From Octopus vulgaris (lineage: Eukaryota): a stretch of 64,000 nucleotides of DNA. Location of the stretch: positions 33,666,001 through 33,730,000 of the forward strand of contig OX597831.1 of the NCBI GenBank assembly GCA_951406725.2, in the 5' to 3' direction. The translations under genes and the position numbers were made by a program. Below, piece by piece: positions 2,027-64,000 of the stretch (positions are counted from its first letter, which is position 1; each line of letters opens with the position of its first letter). Below the pieces are notes generated by a model. The model was given only the letters and a program-made list of their open reading frames with translations. It ran no database searches and was not told the origin of the DNA.

Positions 2027-3143
2027 AACCGATTTTCAAAACTATAAAGTCAGAGCACTGTCTGCTTTTTTTTTTCGGTGAACTAAACCACCCAAATTCT
2101 TGAAACTCACCCCTAAATAGGAAATAGAAAAGAAGGAGGTATTGCAATATTCAGATTTATTGGAATTCGAAAATAAATTAAATAATTAAAAAATCTGAAG
2201 TTGTCATTGTTTTATGAATAGGAGCATTGTCGTGCTGAAATATGAAGTTCTCGTTTTGGAGCCTTGTTCCTTCTCTGTGAATGTGAACCCTGTCTAAAAT
2301 ATCGATGTATCGTGCATCCTTGAAACGGCCGTCCACGATGACAAGCTGTAGCTTTCTCATAGCAGATATTGCTACCCACACTATAAGGTCTTTTCCGCTG
2401 TTCTGCAACTTGGAATAACTAGAATTTTGTATACATTTATCTGCCCTGTAATACTTACAAGCATTGGGATCATCCAAATTCCATTTTCCTTATCAGAGAA
2501 CAGAACCCTGGTCTATTCCCCATCCCACGTCTGATGCTGCCAAGCAAACTCCAATCTAACAGCTTTGTGGGAAGGGGAAAACAACGAACGCCCTAGCCAC
2601 TCCTTCAGGTGGAAATCATGGTTCAAAATCACTCTTCTTACGATGGATATCGAAGCTCCTACTCCTGGTGACGGCTTGATTTTGGAAACTGAAAGGTAGC
2701 GTAACATTTTCACAGCTCTGACATTGGTCCTTTAATCCTTTTCTAATGTAGCCGTTGGACGTCCATTATCATCAACCCTGTTGTAGTTATTAGAATCTTT
2801 CAGAAAGTTGTCAACTGGCGTTGTGCTTCACTAAATCTTCTCGGCAATCTCCCTTCCACTTTCAATATAATTTGGATCACGGAGAATACGATGGAGTCGA
2901 ATATTTTCCGAAACAATCTGGAAAGATATGAATATCTATTAAGGGCTTCATAGTTTTGAAGTGTTGAGATACTAGGGAAAATCAGTTGTAATATGATAAT
3001 AAAGGTACAAGGTTTACATTTCAGAGTATTCATGATATAGCCGTTTACAATATACTATGCCTCTTAGTTCACTTAAATACAGAACTACATTTCAAAATAA
3101 CTTAAGAAAAAAACATGTGGCTTTATAGTTTTGAATAGTAGTT
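2027..3143 (-). mobile_element. Decayed Tc1-family DNA transposon
   Basis: Transposase remnants HKAVRLEFAWQHQTW, VLFSD, VWVAIS and FIFQHDNAPIH; imperfect TIRs sharing ttcaaaactataaag; TA flanks. Confidence 0.85.
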
Positions 3144-12489: not shown

Positions 12490-13512
12490 ATATGAAAACT
12501 CACAGCTTATTTTTGCAGGGTATAATGGAATGTGTCAGCTGTCCACAGCCAGCAGACTAAGATGAAACTTGTTTACTTGTCATGTTTCAAGAACCCTGCG
12601 AAGAATTTTTGCAGGTCCAAGCAATGCTGATGTTTGCGGCTGTTCCACCTTCACACTTGCACCGATCTTTTTCAGCCATGTTGGCAGCTAAGTGCGCCAA
12701 TTACTAATGGTGTCACATTTACTCTCTTCATTGACTACAACCTTCGTATTTCCCACTTCGAATCGTCATACTTCTTTATTTTTTTCTTCTTCTTTCACAT
12801 TGATCCTGTTTCAGGTTTTCGATGTCTGGTCGGCTGATCGCACTGAATCACTGCATCCCACTGAATTTTGCAATTTCTCATTTCCGGTGACTCCTTCTGG
12901 AGTGTGCTCATGCCACGTCTTTGCACTTTATAGGCCGTGATTTCCACAGAGCTCCCAATGGATCGCTTTTGGCACATTGTCATATCGTCTTATGTCTTCG
13001 CGTTGTGCCAATTTCGGAATTCGCTAACGATGTGCCATATCGTTTCACGCCTCCCATCACACATTCTGCATTTGTCGCTATCGGTAGTGTAGTCTATTCT
13101 GCGCGTCATATAGTTGGTCCTTAATGCTTGTTCCTGAGCTGCGCATATGAACGCTTTTGTCTCAATCTTCAGGTCACTCCTTCTCATCCGTAGCCACCGG
13201 TCCTCTGTGTCTGTCTTAGCTTTCACATCTCTTGCAAACTGCCCTTACATTTTCTTTTCCTTCTACGTTTTTTCTGTTTTCTTTTGCTCAATTCTTGTTT
13301 AATATTTTCTTTAGTTACATAATTTTCCATGTGGATGACGCCGGTCTTCTTCGTGTGTTTCAAGAATGGTTCCACGGCATTTTTTATATACTACCCAAGG
13401 CTCTTTTCTTCTGTATTTCGATACAGTCCTGGCAACTGATTAAAACTCTCCTACGCTTTCTTCTGGACAAGTACAGCGCATCTGTGTCACTCTTTGGGTG
13501 GAAGGCTCCGTG

Positions 13513-33149: not shown

Positions 33150-33914
33150 CCGCAAGGCAGCTTGGGGCAAAGTGGGGAGGAGTCGATTACATCGACCCCA
33201 GTGTTCAACTGGTACTTATTTTATCGACACCGAAAGGATGAAAGACAAAGTCGACTTCAGCGGAATTTGAACTCAGAACGTAGCGACGTCATGCTACTAT
33301 AATAATATTCTTTTCTTAGGCGGCGAGCTGGCAGAAACGTTAGCACGCTGGGCGAAATGCATAGCCGTATTTCGTCTGCCGTTACGTTCTGAGTTCAAAT
33401 TCCGCCGAGGTCCACTTTGCCTTTCATCCTTTCGAGGTCGATAAATTATGTATCAGTTACGCACTGGGGTCGATGTAATCGACTGAATCCGTTTATCTAT
33501 CCTTGTTTGTCCTCTCTGTGTTTAGCTCCTTGTGGGTAGTAAAGAAATAGGTATTTTGTCTGCCGTTACGTTCTAAGTTCAAACTCCGCCGAGGTCGACT
33601 TTTCCTTTCATCCTTTCGGGGTTGATTAAATAAGTACCAGTTACACACTGGGGTCGATATAATCGACTTAAACCCTTTGTCCTTATTTGTCTCCTCTATG
33701 TTTAGCCCCCTGTGAACAATAAAGAAAGGCCCGAAATTTTTGGGGAGGGGGCCAGTCGATTAGATCGACCCCTGTACACAACTGATACTTAATTTATCGA
33801 TCTCGAAAGGATGAAAGGCAAAGTGGACCTCGGCGGAATTTGAACTCAGAACGCAACGGCAGACGAAATACCGCTGAGCATTTCTCCTGGCGTGCTAACG
33901 ATTCTGCCAGCTCG
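33150..33914. mobile_element. Cluster of SINE family C copies in alternating orientation (-, + with internal duplication, -)
   Basis: Core motif and its reverse complement repeated; + copy starts at 33319. Confidence 0.8.
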
Positions 33915-34067
33915 TATCGGTTTCTTTGGGGTAAATAGCTAAGTTACAGGGACGTAAATAGACCAACACCGGGTGTCAAGTTGTGGTGGGGCACAGAAAC
34001 ATTCACACCTACATAATACATACATACATACATACATACATACATACATGCATACATATATATATGC

Positions 34068-34139
<72 letters not shown>

Positions 34140-34413
34140 CAACAATTGAGGGTAAAATTAATTAATTATTAATCAATTTCACCAAGTGTTCAGTATGCAA
34201 AGGGACCATTTAAGGCGAATTCAAATTATTACATTATATAAAAGGGCTTAGTAAAATAAATTACTTTGCCGCATACTGAACTCATTAGAAATAGCAGCTA
34301 AAAAACTTTTTTAAAACTATTTCTAATACTTAAAGAAAATCTCTCTCATATAGTGTTTGCTTAATTCAACTCACAAAAGTTTGGGGGTAAGGACATCAAA
34401 AAATCAAATGCTA

Positions 34414-34482
34414 AGGTTATTTGAGAACGTACGTTTCAAGATTAGTCAAAACGACACTTCTATCATCAGCTCAGAAACTCCT
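34414..34482 (-). ncRNA. Hammerhead motif, array unit 1
   Basis: Reverse complement of the 36821-36889 motif (aacgtacgtttc ... tcatcagctca). Confidence 0.75.
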
Positions 34483-34974
34483 TGGTTTGGATTTGGAAAC
34501 ACTGAAAGTAAGAACATACCCTTTCGGCTTCTCATCGCTTTCGAAGATCTGCTCGTAACTAACAGTGCCAACAAACTCAAATAAGCAAGCGAAGAATTTC
34601 TGTTCTCCCCCTTTCCACCAGCGTGGGTTAAAATCATCAAACACTATGCTTATTTCGGTAAAATCCGAAGCATTAATTAGAGGGAGATTAATTATAATTT
34701 CAACAATTGAGGGTAAAATTAATTAATTATTAATCAATTTCACCAAGTGTTCAGTATGCAAAGGGACCATTTAAGGCGAATTCAAATTATTACATTATAT
34801 AAAAGGGCTTAGTAAAATAAATTACTTTGCCGCATACTGAACTCATTAGAAATAGCAGCTAAAAAACTTTTTTAAAGCTATTTCTAATACTTAAAGAAAA
34901 TCTCTCTCATATAGTGTTTGCTTAATTCAACTCACAAAAGTTTGGGGGTAAGGACATCAAAAAATCAAATGCTA

Positions 34975-35043
34975 AGGTTATTTGAGAACGTACGTTTCAA
35001 GATTAGTCAAAACGACACTTCTATCATCAGCTCAGAAACTCCT
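34975..35043 (-). ncRNA. Hammerhead motif, array unit 2
   Basis: Same sequence as in unit 1. Confidence 0.75.
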
Positions 35044-35533
35044 TGGTTTGGATTTGGAAACACTGAAAGTAAGAACATACCCTTTCGGCTTCTCATCGCT
35101 TTCGAAGATCTGCTCGTAACTAACAGTGCCAACAAACTCAAATAAGCAAGCGAAGAATTTCTGTTCTCCCCTTTCCACCAGCGTGGGTTAAAATCATCAA
35201 ACACTATGCTTATTTCGGTAAAATCCGAAGCATTAATTAGAGGGAGATTAATTATAATTTCAACAATTGAGGGTAAAATTAATTAATTATTAATCAATTT
35301 CACCAAGTGTTCAGTATGCAAAGGGACCATTTAAGGCGAATTCAAATTATTACATTATATAAAAGGGCTTAGTAAAATAAATTACTTTGCCGCATACTGA
35401 ACTCATTAGAAATAGCAGCTAAAAAACTTTTTAAAGCTATTTCTAATACTTAAAGAAAATCTCTCTCATATAGTGTTTGCTTAATTCAACTCACAAAAGT
35501 TTGGGGGTAAGGACATCAAAAAATCAAATGCTA

Positions 35534-35602
35534 AGGTTATTTGAGAACGTACGTTTCAAGATTAGTCAAAACGACACTTCTATCATCAGCTCAGAAACTC
35601 CT
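35534..35602 (-). ncRNA. Hammerhead motif, array unit 3
   Basis: Same sequence as in unit 1. Confidence 0.75.
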
Positions 35603-36093
35603 TGGTTTGGATTTGGAAACACTGAAAGTAAGAACATACCCTTTCGGCTTCTCATCGCTTTCGAAGATCTGCTCGTAACTAACAGTGCCAACAAACTCAA
35701 ATAAGCAAGCGAAGAATTTCTGTTCTCCCCTTTCCACCAGCGTGGGTTAAAATCATCAAACACTATGCTTATTTCGGTAAAATCCGAAGCATTAATTAGA
35801 GGGAGATTAATTATAATTTCAACAATTGAGGGTAAAATTAATTAATTATTAATCAATTTCACCAAGTGTTCAGTATGCAAAGGGACCATTTAAGGCGAAT
35901 TCAAATTATTACATTATATAAAAGGGCTTAGTAAAATAAATTACTTTGCCGCATACTGAACTCATTAGAAATAGCAGCTAAAAAACTTTTTTAAAGCTAT
36001 TTCTAATACTTAAAGAAAATCTCTCTCATATAGTGTTTGCTTAATTCAACTCACAAAAGTTTGGGGGTAAGGACATCAAAAAATCAAATGCTA

Positions 36094-36162
36094 AGGTTAT
36101 TTGAGAACGTACGTTTCAAGATTAGTCAAAACGACACTTCTATCATCAGCTCAGAAACTCCT
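36094..36162 (-). ncRNA. Hammerhead motif, array unit 4
   Basis: Same sequence as in unit 1. Confidence 0.75.
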
Positions 36163-36820
36163 TGGTTTGGATTTGAAACACTGAAAGTAAGAACATACCC
36201 TTTCGGCTTCTCATCGCTTTCGAAGATCTGCTCGTAACTAACAGTGCCAACAAACTCAAATAAGCAAGCGAAGAATTTCTGTTCTCCCCTTTCCACCAGC
36301 GTGGGTTAAAATCATCAAACACTATGCTTATTTCGGTAAAATCCGAAGCATTAATTAGAGGGAGATTAATTATAATTTCAACAATTGAGGGTAAAATTAA
36401 TTAATTATTAATCAATTTCACCATAGCTTTAAAAAAGTTTTTTAGCTGCTATTTCTAATGAGTTCAGTATGCGGCAAAGTAATTTATTTTACTAAGCCCT
36501 TTTATATAATGTAATAATTTGAATTCGCCTTAAATGGTCCCTTTGCATACTGAACACTTGGTGAAATTGATTAATAATTAATTAATTTTACCCTCAATTG
36601 TTGAAATTATAATTAATCTCCCTCTAATTAATGCTTCGGATTTTACCGAAATAAGCATAGTGTTTGATGATTTTAACCCACGCTGGTGGAAAGGGGAGAA
36701 CAGAAATTCTTCGCTTGCTTATTTGAGTTTGTTGGCACTGTTAGTTACGAGCAGATCTTCGAAAGCGATGAGAAGCCGAAAGGGTATGTTCTTACTTTCA
36801 GTGTTTCCAAATCCAAACCA

Positions 36821-36889
36821 AGGAGTTTCTGAGCTGATGATAGAAGTGTCGTTTTGACTAATCTTGAAACGTACGTTCTCAAATAACCT
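36821..36889 (+). ncRNA. Type I hammerhead ribozyme motif (Penelope/retrozyme-type, palindromic stem III)
   Basis: Stem I UGAG/CUCA; core CUGAUGA 36834-36840; stem II AGA..GUC-GUUUU-GAC..UCU; GAAAC 36866-36870; GUAC loop; predicted cleavage after GUU at 36877. Confidence 0.75.
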
Positions 36890-37364
36890 TAGCATTTGAT
36901 TTTTTGATGTCCTTACCCCCAAACTTTTGTGAGTTGAATTAAGCAAACACTATATGAGAGAGATTTTCTTTAAGTATTAGAAATAGCTTTAAAAAGTTTT
37001 TTAGCTGCTATTTCTAATGAGTTCAGTATGCGGCAAAGTAATTTATTTTACTAAGCCCTTTTATATAATGTAATAATTTGAATTCGCCTTAAATGGTCCC
37101 TTTGCATACTGAACACTTGGTGAAATTGATTAATAATTAATTAATTTTACCCTCAATTGTTGAAATTATAATTAATCTCCCTCTAATTAATGCTTCGGAT
37201 TTTACCGAAATAAGCATAGTGTTTGATGATTTTAACCCACGCTGGTGGAAAGGGGAGAACAGAAATTCTTCGCTTGCAGTTTGTTGGCACTGTTAGTTAC
37301 GAGCAGATCTTCGAAAGCGATGATAGGGTATGTTCTTACTTTCAGTGTTTCCAAATCCAAACCA

Positions 37365-37432
37365 AGGAGTTTCTGAGCTGATGATAGAAGTGTCGTTTTG
37401 ATAATCTTGAAACGTACGTTCTCAAATAACCT
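37365..37432 (+). ncRNA. Hammerhead motif, last array unit
   Basis: CTGATGA at 37378-37384 and GAAACGTACGTT at 37409-37420; 1-nt deletion in stem II. Confidence 0.65.
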
Positions 37433-37589
37433 TAGCATTTGATTTTTTGATGTCCTTACCCCCAAACTTTTGTGAGTTGAATTAAGCAAACACTATATGA
37501 GAGAGATTTTCTTTAAGTATTAGTTTTTTAGCTGCTATTTCTAATGAGTTCATATGCGGCAAAGTAATTTATTTTACTAAGCCCTAATT

Positions 37590-37670
<81 letters not shown>

Positions 37671-38061
37671 CATATATGTACACATGTGGAGGCACATGGC
37701 CTTGTGGTTAGAGCAGCGGGTTCGAATCTCAGACCGGGCGATGTGCGTGTTTATGAGCGAAACACCTAAGCCCCACGCGGCTCCGGCAGAAGGTAATGGC
37801 GAACTTCTACTGACTTTTTCGATACAACTTTCTCTCACCGTTTCCTCCTGCATCTTGCAGCTCACCTGCGACGGGCCGGCGTCTCGTCCAGGTGGAGAAC
37901 CCATACGCCAAGAAAATTAGAAAACCGGCCCTTATGAGGCATGGCTCGAGAAGGAACAAACATATGTACACATACATAAATACTTACGTTCATACATACA
38001 TGTCTACATTCATACAAACCTATATACACATACATACATATATGCATCGGACTGGACACTT

Positions 38062-38460
38062 TACGTGATCTGCAACCTGGACATCAAAACTAGAAAGGTA
38101 CTGAACACCACTGGCAACTTCCATATCAACAGCGACGCTGATAGGATTTATATGAGACGAAGTGATGGCGATAGAAACTTAAGGTCAGTCCAAACAACCT
38201 TTGAATGTTTTATTGTATCATTCAGACAATATCTGCTGAACAGTAAAGAAATACATTCCATGCATACTCAAAAAGGAGAACACCTTCAGAATTGGAGAAG
38301 GCTTACTGAGCAGGTATTCTGAGAATACAGCTATCTCATGCAACTCAAAGGAAGCTGGACTGGCCTACTTAGACAAAAGCTTGGCGGAGAAGCAGGCATC
38401 ACACCAGCAAAAAGTAATGATGGTACATATTCCATATGCTATAGGTTAACAACAGTATTA
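38062..38460 (+). mobile_element. R4/Dong-like LINE internal fragment
   Basis: LDIKTRKVLNTTGNFHINSDADRIYMRRSDGDRNL matches the conserved post-RT motif of this clade. Confidence 0.7.
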
Positions 38461-39002
38461 AAAGGAAGAGAGGATAAAAGATCCTTTCTAAGTCGGGTTC
38501 GAATCATCAGGCCGGTTTCCGTGACGCACATATATTCTGCAGCTGGATGGGACGCTAATCCATCGCAAGATTACTAATTTTTAACATCTGAGTGGACTGG
38601 AGCAAGGTGAAATGAAGTTTTTTGCCCAAGAAGACAATGTATCACCCAGTCCAGGAATCGAAACCACAATCTTACGATCATGAGTCCAAAATCCTAACCA
38701 CACGCCTATATTCAATTGCATATAGCAGACTTTTATTCAGCCGGGCGGCAATTCGCAACATTAGTGAACGTTTTATTCACTTTTTCCTATATTAGAAACG
38801 ATGAATTCTCGCCCGAGCATGTGGTTGTCTGCAAGTAGATGCTATGGAAAATGACTGAAAACGGTTGGAATACCTCTGGCTCTCTTGCCGGCCGCCGCTG
38901 GGACGAATCTCAGGACAAGTACTGCAGTAACTGGTCAATTTACAATATATATATATTTATAGCGAGGTTTAACATTGTTAAACCTCGCTAAGATAAATAT
39001 TT

Positions 39003-63297: not shown

Positions 63298-64000
63298 CGA
63301 AGTGGTACCAAAACGTTATCAGATTAGTCATGTAGCGCGCAAACGGACAGCAGCGCACGGTTGCGTGCATAGTGAGAGCTAGCAGTGGCCTTTATGAGGC
63401 AGTGTGCCGAGTGACATCGCTGATTTCACTCCGCAAGTTGGGAAATTTGTGTTTTTGTGATCGTGTGGTATGCTGTAGTCTGCGATTTTGTCATGGACAG
63501 GAAGATGAAACAAAGAGCCGACGTGAAATTTTGCGTTAAACTTGGGAGATCGGCTAAAGAGACATTGAGCATGCGTCGACAAGCTTACGGCACCGAGGCA
63601 ACGGGTCGTGCACAATGTTTCAAGTGGCACGGGTGTTTCGAAAGCGGAAGAACGTCCCTGCAAGACGTTGAGTGATCTGAAAGACCTACTGTGAGCGTCA
63701 CCCACGGAAGGGTGGTATTGTGCATCGTGCCCCTCCAAGTTCAGACGGTCAATCGAGAATTCTACAGCGAAGTTTTGAAGCGAAAGTGACCGGTTCTGTG
63801 GAGCGTGAAGAATTAGATCCTTCTCGACGACAATGCACCCTATCACTGAGCAATCCTCACGCGTGAGTTTCTCGCCAAAAACAACATGGTATCGCTTCTG
63901 CACCCTCCCTATTCGCCAAATTTAGCACTTGCGGACTTCCGTCTCCTCCCAAAGATGAAAATGCGAAGGTCACCATTTTAACACCGATGTCGAGATCGAG
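63298..64000 (+). mobile_element. Decayed mariner transposon (runs off the window)
   Basis: MKQRADVKFCVKLGRSAKETL..AYG..FKWHGCFESGRTSL helix-turn-helix, DNAPYH and HPPYSPNLALADF motifs; TA at 63296. Confidence 0.9.

Follow-up and report, generated by a model that had tools for sequence, protein, structure and literature searches.

The window analyzed here, a stretch of 64,000 nucleotides from Octopus vulgaris (contig OX597831.1, positions 33,666,001 to 33,730,000), contains an array of units of about 560 bp that each carry one type I hammerhead ribozyme motif. The array is a single insertion (34136..37597; locus L149) of a dispersed repeat without an open reading frame (ORF); its two arms lie head to head, with 5' ends inside and 3' ends outward, and each arm ends at its own fixed position of the unit. 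The element is a real, young, non-autonomous Penelope-type retrozyme, of a kind already described. With somewhat better than even confidence, the insertion is read as the product of a Penelope-like reverse transcriptase (RT)-endonuclease that acts in trans and primes synthesis at both sides of its cut on a template that is likely a circle. What speaks most strongly for the mechanism is the inversion, together with the two fixed 3' ends; neither feature figured in a preliminary description of this DNA.

Structure of the insertion

Unit coordinates (u1-559) refer to a reference unit, window 36608-37166. The left arm (34136..36423, minus strand) ends at site B (unit base 559) and comprises four full units (34136-34696, 34697-35256, 35257-35815 and 35816-36374) plus 49 bp. 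The right arm (36424..37597, plus strand) ends at site A (unit base ~465) and comprises a partial unit (36424-36607), a full unit (36608-37166) and a last partial unit (37167-37597). The array thus amounts to 4.1 units on the minus strand and 2.1 on the plus strand, back to back within (TA)n, with the B end at left and the A end at right. At the inversion junction (36423..36424) u511 meets u376 with a 1-nt overlap; the flanks are a (TA)n-rich target microsatellite at left (34016..34137) and a (TA)n target microsatellite at right (37590..37677). The unit has a G+C content of 0.33 and no long terminal repeats (LTRs), and six-frame translation of a dimer gives short open stretches only; an ORF with RT and GIY-YIG domains between pseudo-LTRs (pLTRs) is absent from the unit, the window and the examined family loci. 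Tandem Repeats Finder, whose period limit is 500, misses the array.

The preliminary description reported about six near-identical units with the motif UGAG-CUGAUGA-(stem II)-GAAAC-GUAC-GUU/CUCA and a predicted cut after 36877, and this is borne out at 34136-37597. Its picture of a homogeneous tandem array of ~560 bp applies to the full units (559–561 bp, 99.6–100% alike, with differences that are almost all single-base insertions or deletions), but not to the array as a whole, which is inverted at 36423/36424 and whose last partial unit is only 92% alike. That unit (37167-37597) has six deletions, one of them in stem II of the hammerhead; as the first-made copy of the A arm, it may record either assembly error or an error-prone start of synthesis. 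Four hammerhead cores lie consecutively on the minus strand (34136-36423) and two on the plus strand (36424-37597), six in total; because of the inversion, a single read-through transcript would meet four or two ribozymes, not six.

Fixed 3' ends and locus-specific junctions

The ends of the repeat were compared in 55 loci, 37 taken in order along one contig (C1) and 18 from best hits; the end counts exclude a divergent sister (L146) and a short hit that lies apart in L140. Simple two-armed insertions make up 39 of the 55, all with their 3' ends outward, and 37 of these 39 have one A and one B end; no locus has AA or BB, and the other two are unclassifiable. For the loci in order along C1 the rule of one A and one B end holds in 24 of 24. 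The B end lies near u559 and the A end near u460-472 (one at 439), while 5' ends fall at many positions across the unit. Among another 18 loci, chosen by their 3' module and not by the hammerhead, all 10 clear two-armed insertions obey the rule (two of the 10 look like mutual duplicates), 6 are one-armed and 2 are unresolved. Judged from sequence, back-to-back arms with fixed 3' ends are the tail-plus-inverted-repeat signature of Penelope-like elements, here in an element without an ORF, and the two-armed insertions offer unusually clean evidence for two-ended priming. A nominal pile-up of 5' ends at site A (11/90, p 0.011) was also considered; it disappeared after scan correction (P 0.64).

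Each insertion has its own, locus-specific junction. Junctions were counted in 45 loci, leaving out L147, L010, L239 (likely duplicate), L228, L231 and L233 (junction unresolved): 27 have 0–9 nt of overlap, 15 have 1–6 added bases and 3 have longer inserts. In two loci (L057, L119) the arms stop at the same unit position and differ in length by one whole unit, a pattern that is natural on a circle and possible on a multimer.

The junctions also bear on an improbable alternative, in which one complementary DNA (cDNA) is primed at site B, the second arm arises by fold-back self-priming and site A, which is TATA-like, is where the other DNA end captures it. Symmetric junctions, counted modulo unit length, number 10 of 45 where 2.0 are expected, and self-priming has been inferred from palindromes at inverted junctions (PMC3846280). 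A fold-back copy, however, cannot exceed the arm it copies, whereas in 21 of 45 loci the A arm extends beyond the B arm (e.g. 3,307 vs 128 bp), and 35 of the 45 junctions are asymmetric.

The hammerhead motif

The motif of the reference unit (36830..36881, plus strand; predicted cut after 36877 in GUU, u270) has a 4-bp stem I, a U.U at the base of stem II and a palindromic stem III. The second plus-strand motif (37374..37424) has a 1-nt deletion in distal stem II, and the four minus-strand motifs lie at 36102..36153, 35542..35593, 34983..35034 and 34422..34473; every one of the six has the core CUGAUGA...GAAACGUACGUU and a stem I of 4 bp. The Rfam check proposed in the preliminary description failed, with no hammerhead match for 36430-37580 at E<=10; for the whole window none is among the 150 of 242 matches listed. 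The hammerhead call therefore rests on the core pattern and on covariation.

Eleven hammerhead variants from the window family and its sisters, 7 of them from loci found without a hammerhead query, share the CUGANGA / GAAA / NUH core, the three helices and the covariation of type I; among their cores is the U3-A8 variant, known from Penelope-like elements (PMC4209133). Across the 11, 90.9% of cells are paired, compared with 25–41% in slid controls; pairing is 95.5% in stem I and 77.3% in stem II, and stem III is invariant. Since the shuffle control ignores relatedness, it is the slid control and the pair types that carry the weight of the covariation. Among the 11 variants 8 of 13 pairs change on both sides, and both copies in the module-selected set that reach the hammerhead retain the core. 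The pattern suggests that the hammerhead is under selection, with compensatory changes. In place of the G10.1-C11.1 pair expected of a type I hammerhead the window has U.U, and only 3 of the 11 variants have G-C. Stem III is ACG...CGU with loops of 0–4 nt, mostly palindromic, and the predicted energy of its 10-mer is -11.6 kcal/mol as a duplex and 0 as a hairpin.

Two further observations concern hammerheads and their surroundings. Unrelated motifs with a short stem III occur in the flanks of L010, L057, L069, L100, L122, L129, L138, L159, L054 and L064, and the genome seems rich in such families. Some 45 nt upstream of the hammerhead (window 36781-36790, u174-183) is GG|GUAUGU, which resembles a 5' splice site, and similar motifs occur in sister and Neptune-like elements; Penelope pLTRs carry an intron adjoining the hammerhead (PMC4209133). 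No spliced joint was seen in the contigs of four runs that cover the unit, the kind of run not being on record.

The 3' module and sister families

The last third of the reference unit (36975..37166, plus strand) is a conserved 3' module common to sister families. In the predicted fold it consists of a hairpin (u368-412), a long stem (u414-507) and a second hairpin (u512-542), followed by site B (37166). Site A (37067-37079, plus strand) is an unpaired AU-rich stretch that follows a CCC-ending stem and is enclosed within the long stem; site B follows the second hairpin, which likewise ends in CCC. The consensus structure has 23 pairs, of which 6 show two-sided change in at least one sequence, with many G-U swaps; one alignment row (L047) included flank, which lowers its pair counts. 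A variant pattern of the module in sister families has 6,251 matches (control 0), and the sister units (567–594 bp where measured) likewise form tandems. These families (L155-L179, L181-L224, L068, L104, L046) share the 3' module, have different hammerhead stems (stem II of 60–70 nt in some) and, with their 6,251 matches, outnumber the family of the window.

Dispersal, targets and age

The hammerhead core pattern has 2,126 exact matches in the genome and its reversed control has 1; the first 100 matches correspond to 38 loci, extrapolating to ~800 loci. A word from the 3' module has 3,404 matches (control 0). The best 40 full-length copies are 98–100% alike and spread over 13 contigs, in keeping with the earlier view of a recent mobile retrozyme-type family with a dimer-capable hammerhead; subfamilies of the window repeat are 86–97% alike, and the longest consecutive run of hammerheads outside the window reaches 12. 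Flanks are TA-rich on both sides in 55 of 65 loci. Where a TA-run interruption lies close to the insertion (27 loci), target duplications of 13–17 bp, judged by eye, were found in 6 (L143, L129, L148, L012, L238, L237); in the other loci with interrupted flanks the interruption fails to recur or sits too far out. Six of 12 loci flagged for target duplication by script were dropped by eye as element ends or uninformative. Window-type repeats and Neptune-like elements are nested in each other's (TA)n flanks in L104, L136, L151 and L245. Parts of the unit also occur in 20 sequence rows from 8 studies with 5 organism labels.

The assignment of the element draws on both sets of features. Like non-LTR retrozymes it has tandem hammerhead units, no coding capacity or LTR, a G+C content below 50%, a dispersed distribution and target duplications of more than 4 bp; like non-autonomous Penelope-like elements it has a 5'-truncated tandem and inverted copy and a tail at one end. 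It is very improbable that the array is instead a satellite, with both amplification and inversion having taken place in the DNA itself, or an artefact of assembly, the hammerhead being a relic. Some arrays are long and uniform (L132 has 14 pieces without differences), with DNA-level duplication, and the last unit in the window has many small deletions, as such an origin would allow; it would not account for dispersal, (TA)n targeting, target duplications, 3' ends that are fixed while 5' ends are scattered, a locus-specific junction for each insertion, or covariation in the hammerhead.

Candidate partner enzymes

GIY-YIG candidates number 6,136 in the genome, of which 150 were scored. One family among them has intact ORFs of 781 aa with RT, a CxxC linker and GIY-YIG, a median of 0.8% apart; it is called Neptune-like because its linker is as described in PMC8557442. 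This family is (TA)n-targeted and has short and long 3' ends ~35 nt apart, and the single locus that displays both ends has one of each. In its members (L091-L110, e.g. L094:768-4468) an upstream frame of 479 aa, with no clear Pfam match, overlaps the RT/GIY-YIG frame, and thus a frameshift or splice may join the two; their 3' end carries the U3-A8 hammerhead variant and a ~35-nt tail. Neither the Neptune-like family nor any other family seen has the 3' module of the unit. A partner was sought through GIY-YIG loci, extensions of sister families and tblastn of repeat loci, which gave nested or unrelated neighbors only. In published work a Penelope-like protein cuts both strands, extends each of them and begins synthesis at two internal sites (PMC11167929).

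Form of the template and proposed mechanism

Units differ by 0.24% within an arm, 0.50% across the arms of a locus and 5.3% between loci, and a unit is as far from others in its own arm as from those in the opposite arm (0.48 vs 0.47%; 23 loci, p 0.36). From these distances both arms of a locus appear to have been copied from a single template; 23 sample-private variants are shared by both arms, although other source loci may carry them. Of 90 arms, 70 cross one predicted cut site and 25 cross two; 5' ends fall near it in 4 of 90 (3.4 expected) without pile-up, and no gap at the cut site occurs in 164 pieces. Arms read across the cut site and leave neither scar nor pile-up there, so the template is not a cut linear monomer and is likely a circle or an uncut multimer. 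The Penelope-like mobilization proposed in the preliminary description is in other respects supported, by the (TA)n targets, the target duplications and the tail with inverted arms. A circle is favored because ligation best reconciles a conserved ribozyme with a cut that leaves no trace, and a circle generated by the hammerhead is on balance the probable template. Ligated circles have been proposed as templates for retrozymes (PMC4209133, PMC7229834). The stability of the circular fold (z -4.7) was rejected as evidence for a circle, since the opposite strand matches it (z -5.0), and contigs of four runs guessed to be RNA, which cover 29–30 of 30 unit bins, were not used either way, their kind being unrecorded and ends and strand unavailable.

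In the proposed mechanism, tandem copies would first be transcribed. Neighboring hammerheads would then pair via the palindromic stem III and release monomers of ~560 nt to be ligated into circles, a step suggested by the conservation of the hammerhead and by the retrozymes of other animals. Next, a borrowed enzyme would bind the structured 3' module and cut both strands of (TA)n about 13–17 bp apart; here the target and its duplication are observed. One DNA end would prime at site B (u559) and its counterpart at site A (u~465). Both sites are AU-rich, unpaired in the predicted fold and preceded by a stem that closes in CCC; priming there would generate the end rule seen in the loci. Each cDNA would be variable in length, passing through the cut site and often spanning more than one unit, and the two would be joined at mostly 0–9 nt of overlap or a few added bases, as the arms and junctions display. 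Later, long arrays would be extended at the DNA level, as four loci suggest. The three steps from enzyme binding and (TA)n cutting, through priming at two sites, to the joining of variable cDNAs very probably took place.

Several results weigh against this reading. Of the 55 loci, the 16 that are not simple two-armed insertions are one-armed, complex or have an unreadable end. Duplication at the DNA level is suggested by variants shared with a period of 2–3 units (L135, L136, L124, L142), and two variants that recur in both arms of L111, offset by one unit, fit a heterogeneous linear template. At 8 of the 45 junctions the two arms stop at one template position, consistent with a linear fragment or fold-back; six of the eight belong to the set of short insertions, where chance agreement is higher. 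The lowest-energy fold of the monomer is not the active hammerhead (z -0.09). In vitro, uncut RNA was the main substrate of the Penelope-like enzyme and the hammerhead was not needed for insertion, and start sites were alike on both strands (PMC11167929); 8 of 9 retrozyme dimers tested elsewhere failed to cleave (bioRxiv 10.64898/2026.07.22.740005). As to the enzyme, the linkage to Penelope ORFs that had been proposed as a check was not found: the 3' module is absent from autonomous elements in 70 GIY-YIG stretches (66 distinct loci, from the 150 scored of 6,136), no Penelope ORF is linked to the terminal sequence of the unit in these or in module-bearing loci, and the Neptune-like 3' end aligns with the unit no better than shuffles do (86 of 200 as good).

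Much of this could be accommodated if priming were two-ended and Penelope-like but the template, transcribed from an existing array, were an uncut linear multimer or a fragment; the hammerhead would trim transcripts only occasionally, and array length would be set by the source array and unequal exchange. This we regard as possible, though doubtful. To it belong the preference for uncut RNA in vitro, the anole, in which no reads ended at the cut site (PMC11167929), the offset variants of L111, the periodic patterns in four loci, the eight same-position junctions and the weak predicted monomer fold. Yet no mirror-ordered variants were found in the 18 multi-unit loci listed, and loci are near homogeneous with about tenfold more difference between them, which implies repeated monomer bottlenecks; nor would a linear multimer account for the upkeep of the hammerhead through compensatory changes when 5' ends are missing at the cut.

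A broader form of the circle model, advanced tentatively and with rather less than even confidence, is that there is a superfamily of hammerhead circles of 545–594 nt with two start modules for reverse transcription, equivalent in structure and ~90 nt apart, of which a dimeric Penelope-like enzyme uses exactly one per DNA end and then rolls round the circle. If true, this model would explain the tail, inverted repeat and tandem copies of Penelope-like elements generally, and would be genomic evidence for retrozyme circles as a transposition template in animals.

Comparison with known systems

In twin priming by LINE-1, two cDNAs made from both target ends produce an inversion joined at microhomology, as is proposed here; twin priming is occasional, uses variable internal sites and yields arms that do not repeat each other. 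In contrast, the two-armed form is the commonest outcome for the octopus repeat, which uses two fixed sites and whose arms both copy the same sequence.

Non-LTR retrozymes have been described in coral, mussel and axolotl (PMC7229834), and a 2026 preprint covering 35 genomes (31 vertebrates, 3 insects and 1 anthozoan) derives retrozymes from Penelope-like pLTRs (bioRxiv 10.64898/2026.07.22.740005). The window family resembles them in its ORF-less tandem unit, G+C content of 33%, one type I hammerhead per unit, absence of LTRs, target duplication of more than 4 bp and the presence of Penelope-like elements in the same genome. Axolotl HHR_Amex2 likewise combines a 2-bp stem III, capped by a tetraloop, with U.U at the stem II base, and an axolotl ribozyme with similar features cleaved 22% per hour as a monomer and better as a dimer (PMC7229834). 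The unit of 560 nt is longer than tested retrozymes (170–400 nt) and within the 51–972 bp of the preprint. Expression and circles have been shown for published retrozymes, whereas in the window family they are predicted. In the main text available for these two sources, neither a cephalopod nor back-to-back arms, fixed double 3' ends or (TA)n targeting appeared. The squid genome paper, as far as its text was available, counts 235 Rfam hammerhead loci without analysis (PMC6962438), and a repeat annotation for octopus, which includes active Penelope-like families, mentions neither hammerhead nor ribozyme in text or supplement (PMC13282606). The preliminary description knew of no octopus family like this one. 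In the literature searched, neither the family nor any tally of its one-end-each rule turned up, though either may be found in subscription papers, Repbase or retrozyme supplements; elements of its kind have been described.

With endonuclease-bearing Penelope-like elements of the Neptune clade (PMC8557442, PMC3846280, PMC11167929, PMC4209133) the family shares tandems that are partial, a 5'-truncated copy in inverted orientation, a tail confined to one end, a preference for (TA)n, a hammerhead whose stem I is short, stem II long and stem III palindromic, and, in sister families, the U3-A8 core variant. It differs in having no ORF, a tail of ~90 nt instead of 30–40, and arms that can both be multi-unit. 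Tail and inverted pLTR were already known (PMC3846280, PMC8557442, PMC8969392); the one-end-each rule is counted here (37/39), whereas the accessible text of the Penelope-like papers describes the tail as optional or as frequently found at one end. Non-autonomous Chlamys elements, such as MRC1 (PMC8557442), are likewise multicopy, head-to-tail Penelope-like derivatives, but most Chlamys are without a canonical hammerhead and their 3' end resembles that of an autonomous partner; none was found for the window family. The formation of the tail and of tandem and inverted ends in Penelope-like elements is still called undefined (PMC8557442), and the circle as template for retrozymes has been proposed, not demonstrated (PMC4209133, PMC7229834). 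With its hundreds of insertions, both young and short, the octopus family allows counts of end-rule cases, junctions and template forms; it also supplies an RNA of 560 nt with two mapped start sites that suits in vitro assay, and a retrozyme superfamily missed by Rfam.

Other features of the window

No host gene was detected by Pfam in 110 of the 129 open stretches of the window; Pfam gave weak transposase and RT-associated traces only, namely Tc1/mariner transposase helix-turn-helix and zf-RVT traces below cut-offs at 2516-2731 (minus strand), 63424-63672 (plus strand) and 12993-13244 (minus strand). A decayed stretch at 38040-38470, without a Pfam match, has a translation that we take to resemble the C-terminal part of a long interspersed element of R4/Dong type. 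Directly left of the insertion, at 33150-33950, lies a GC-richer repeat resembling a short interspersed element (SINE), with nested copies in both orientations.

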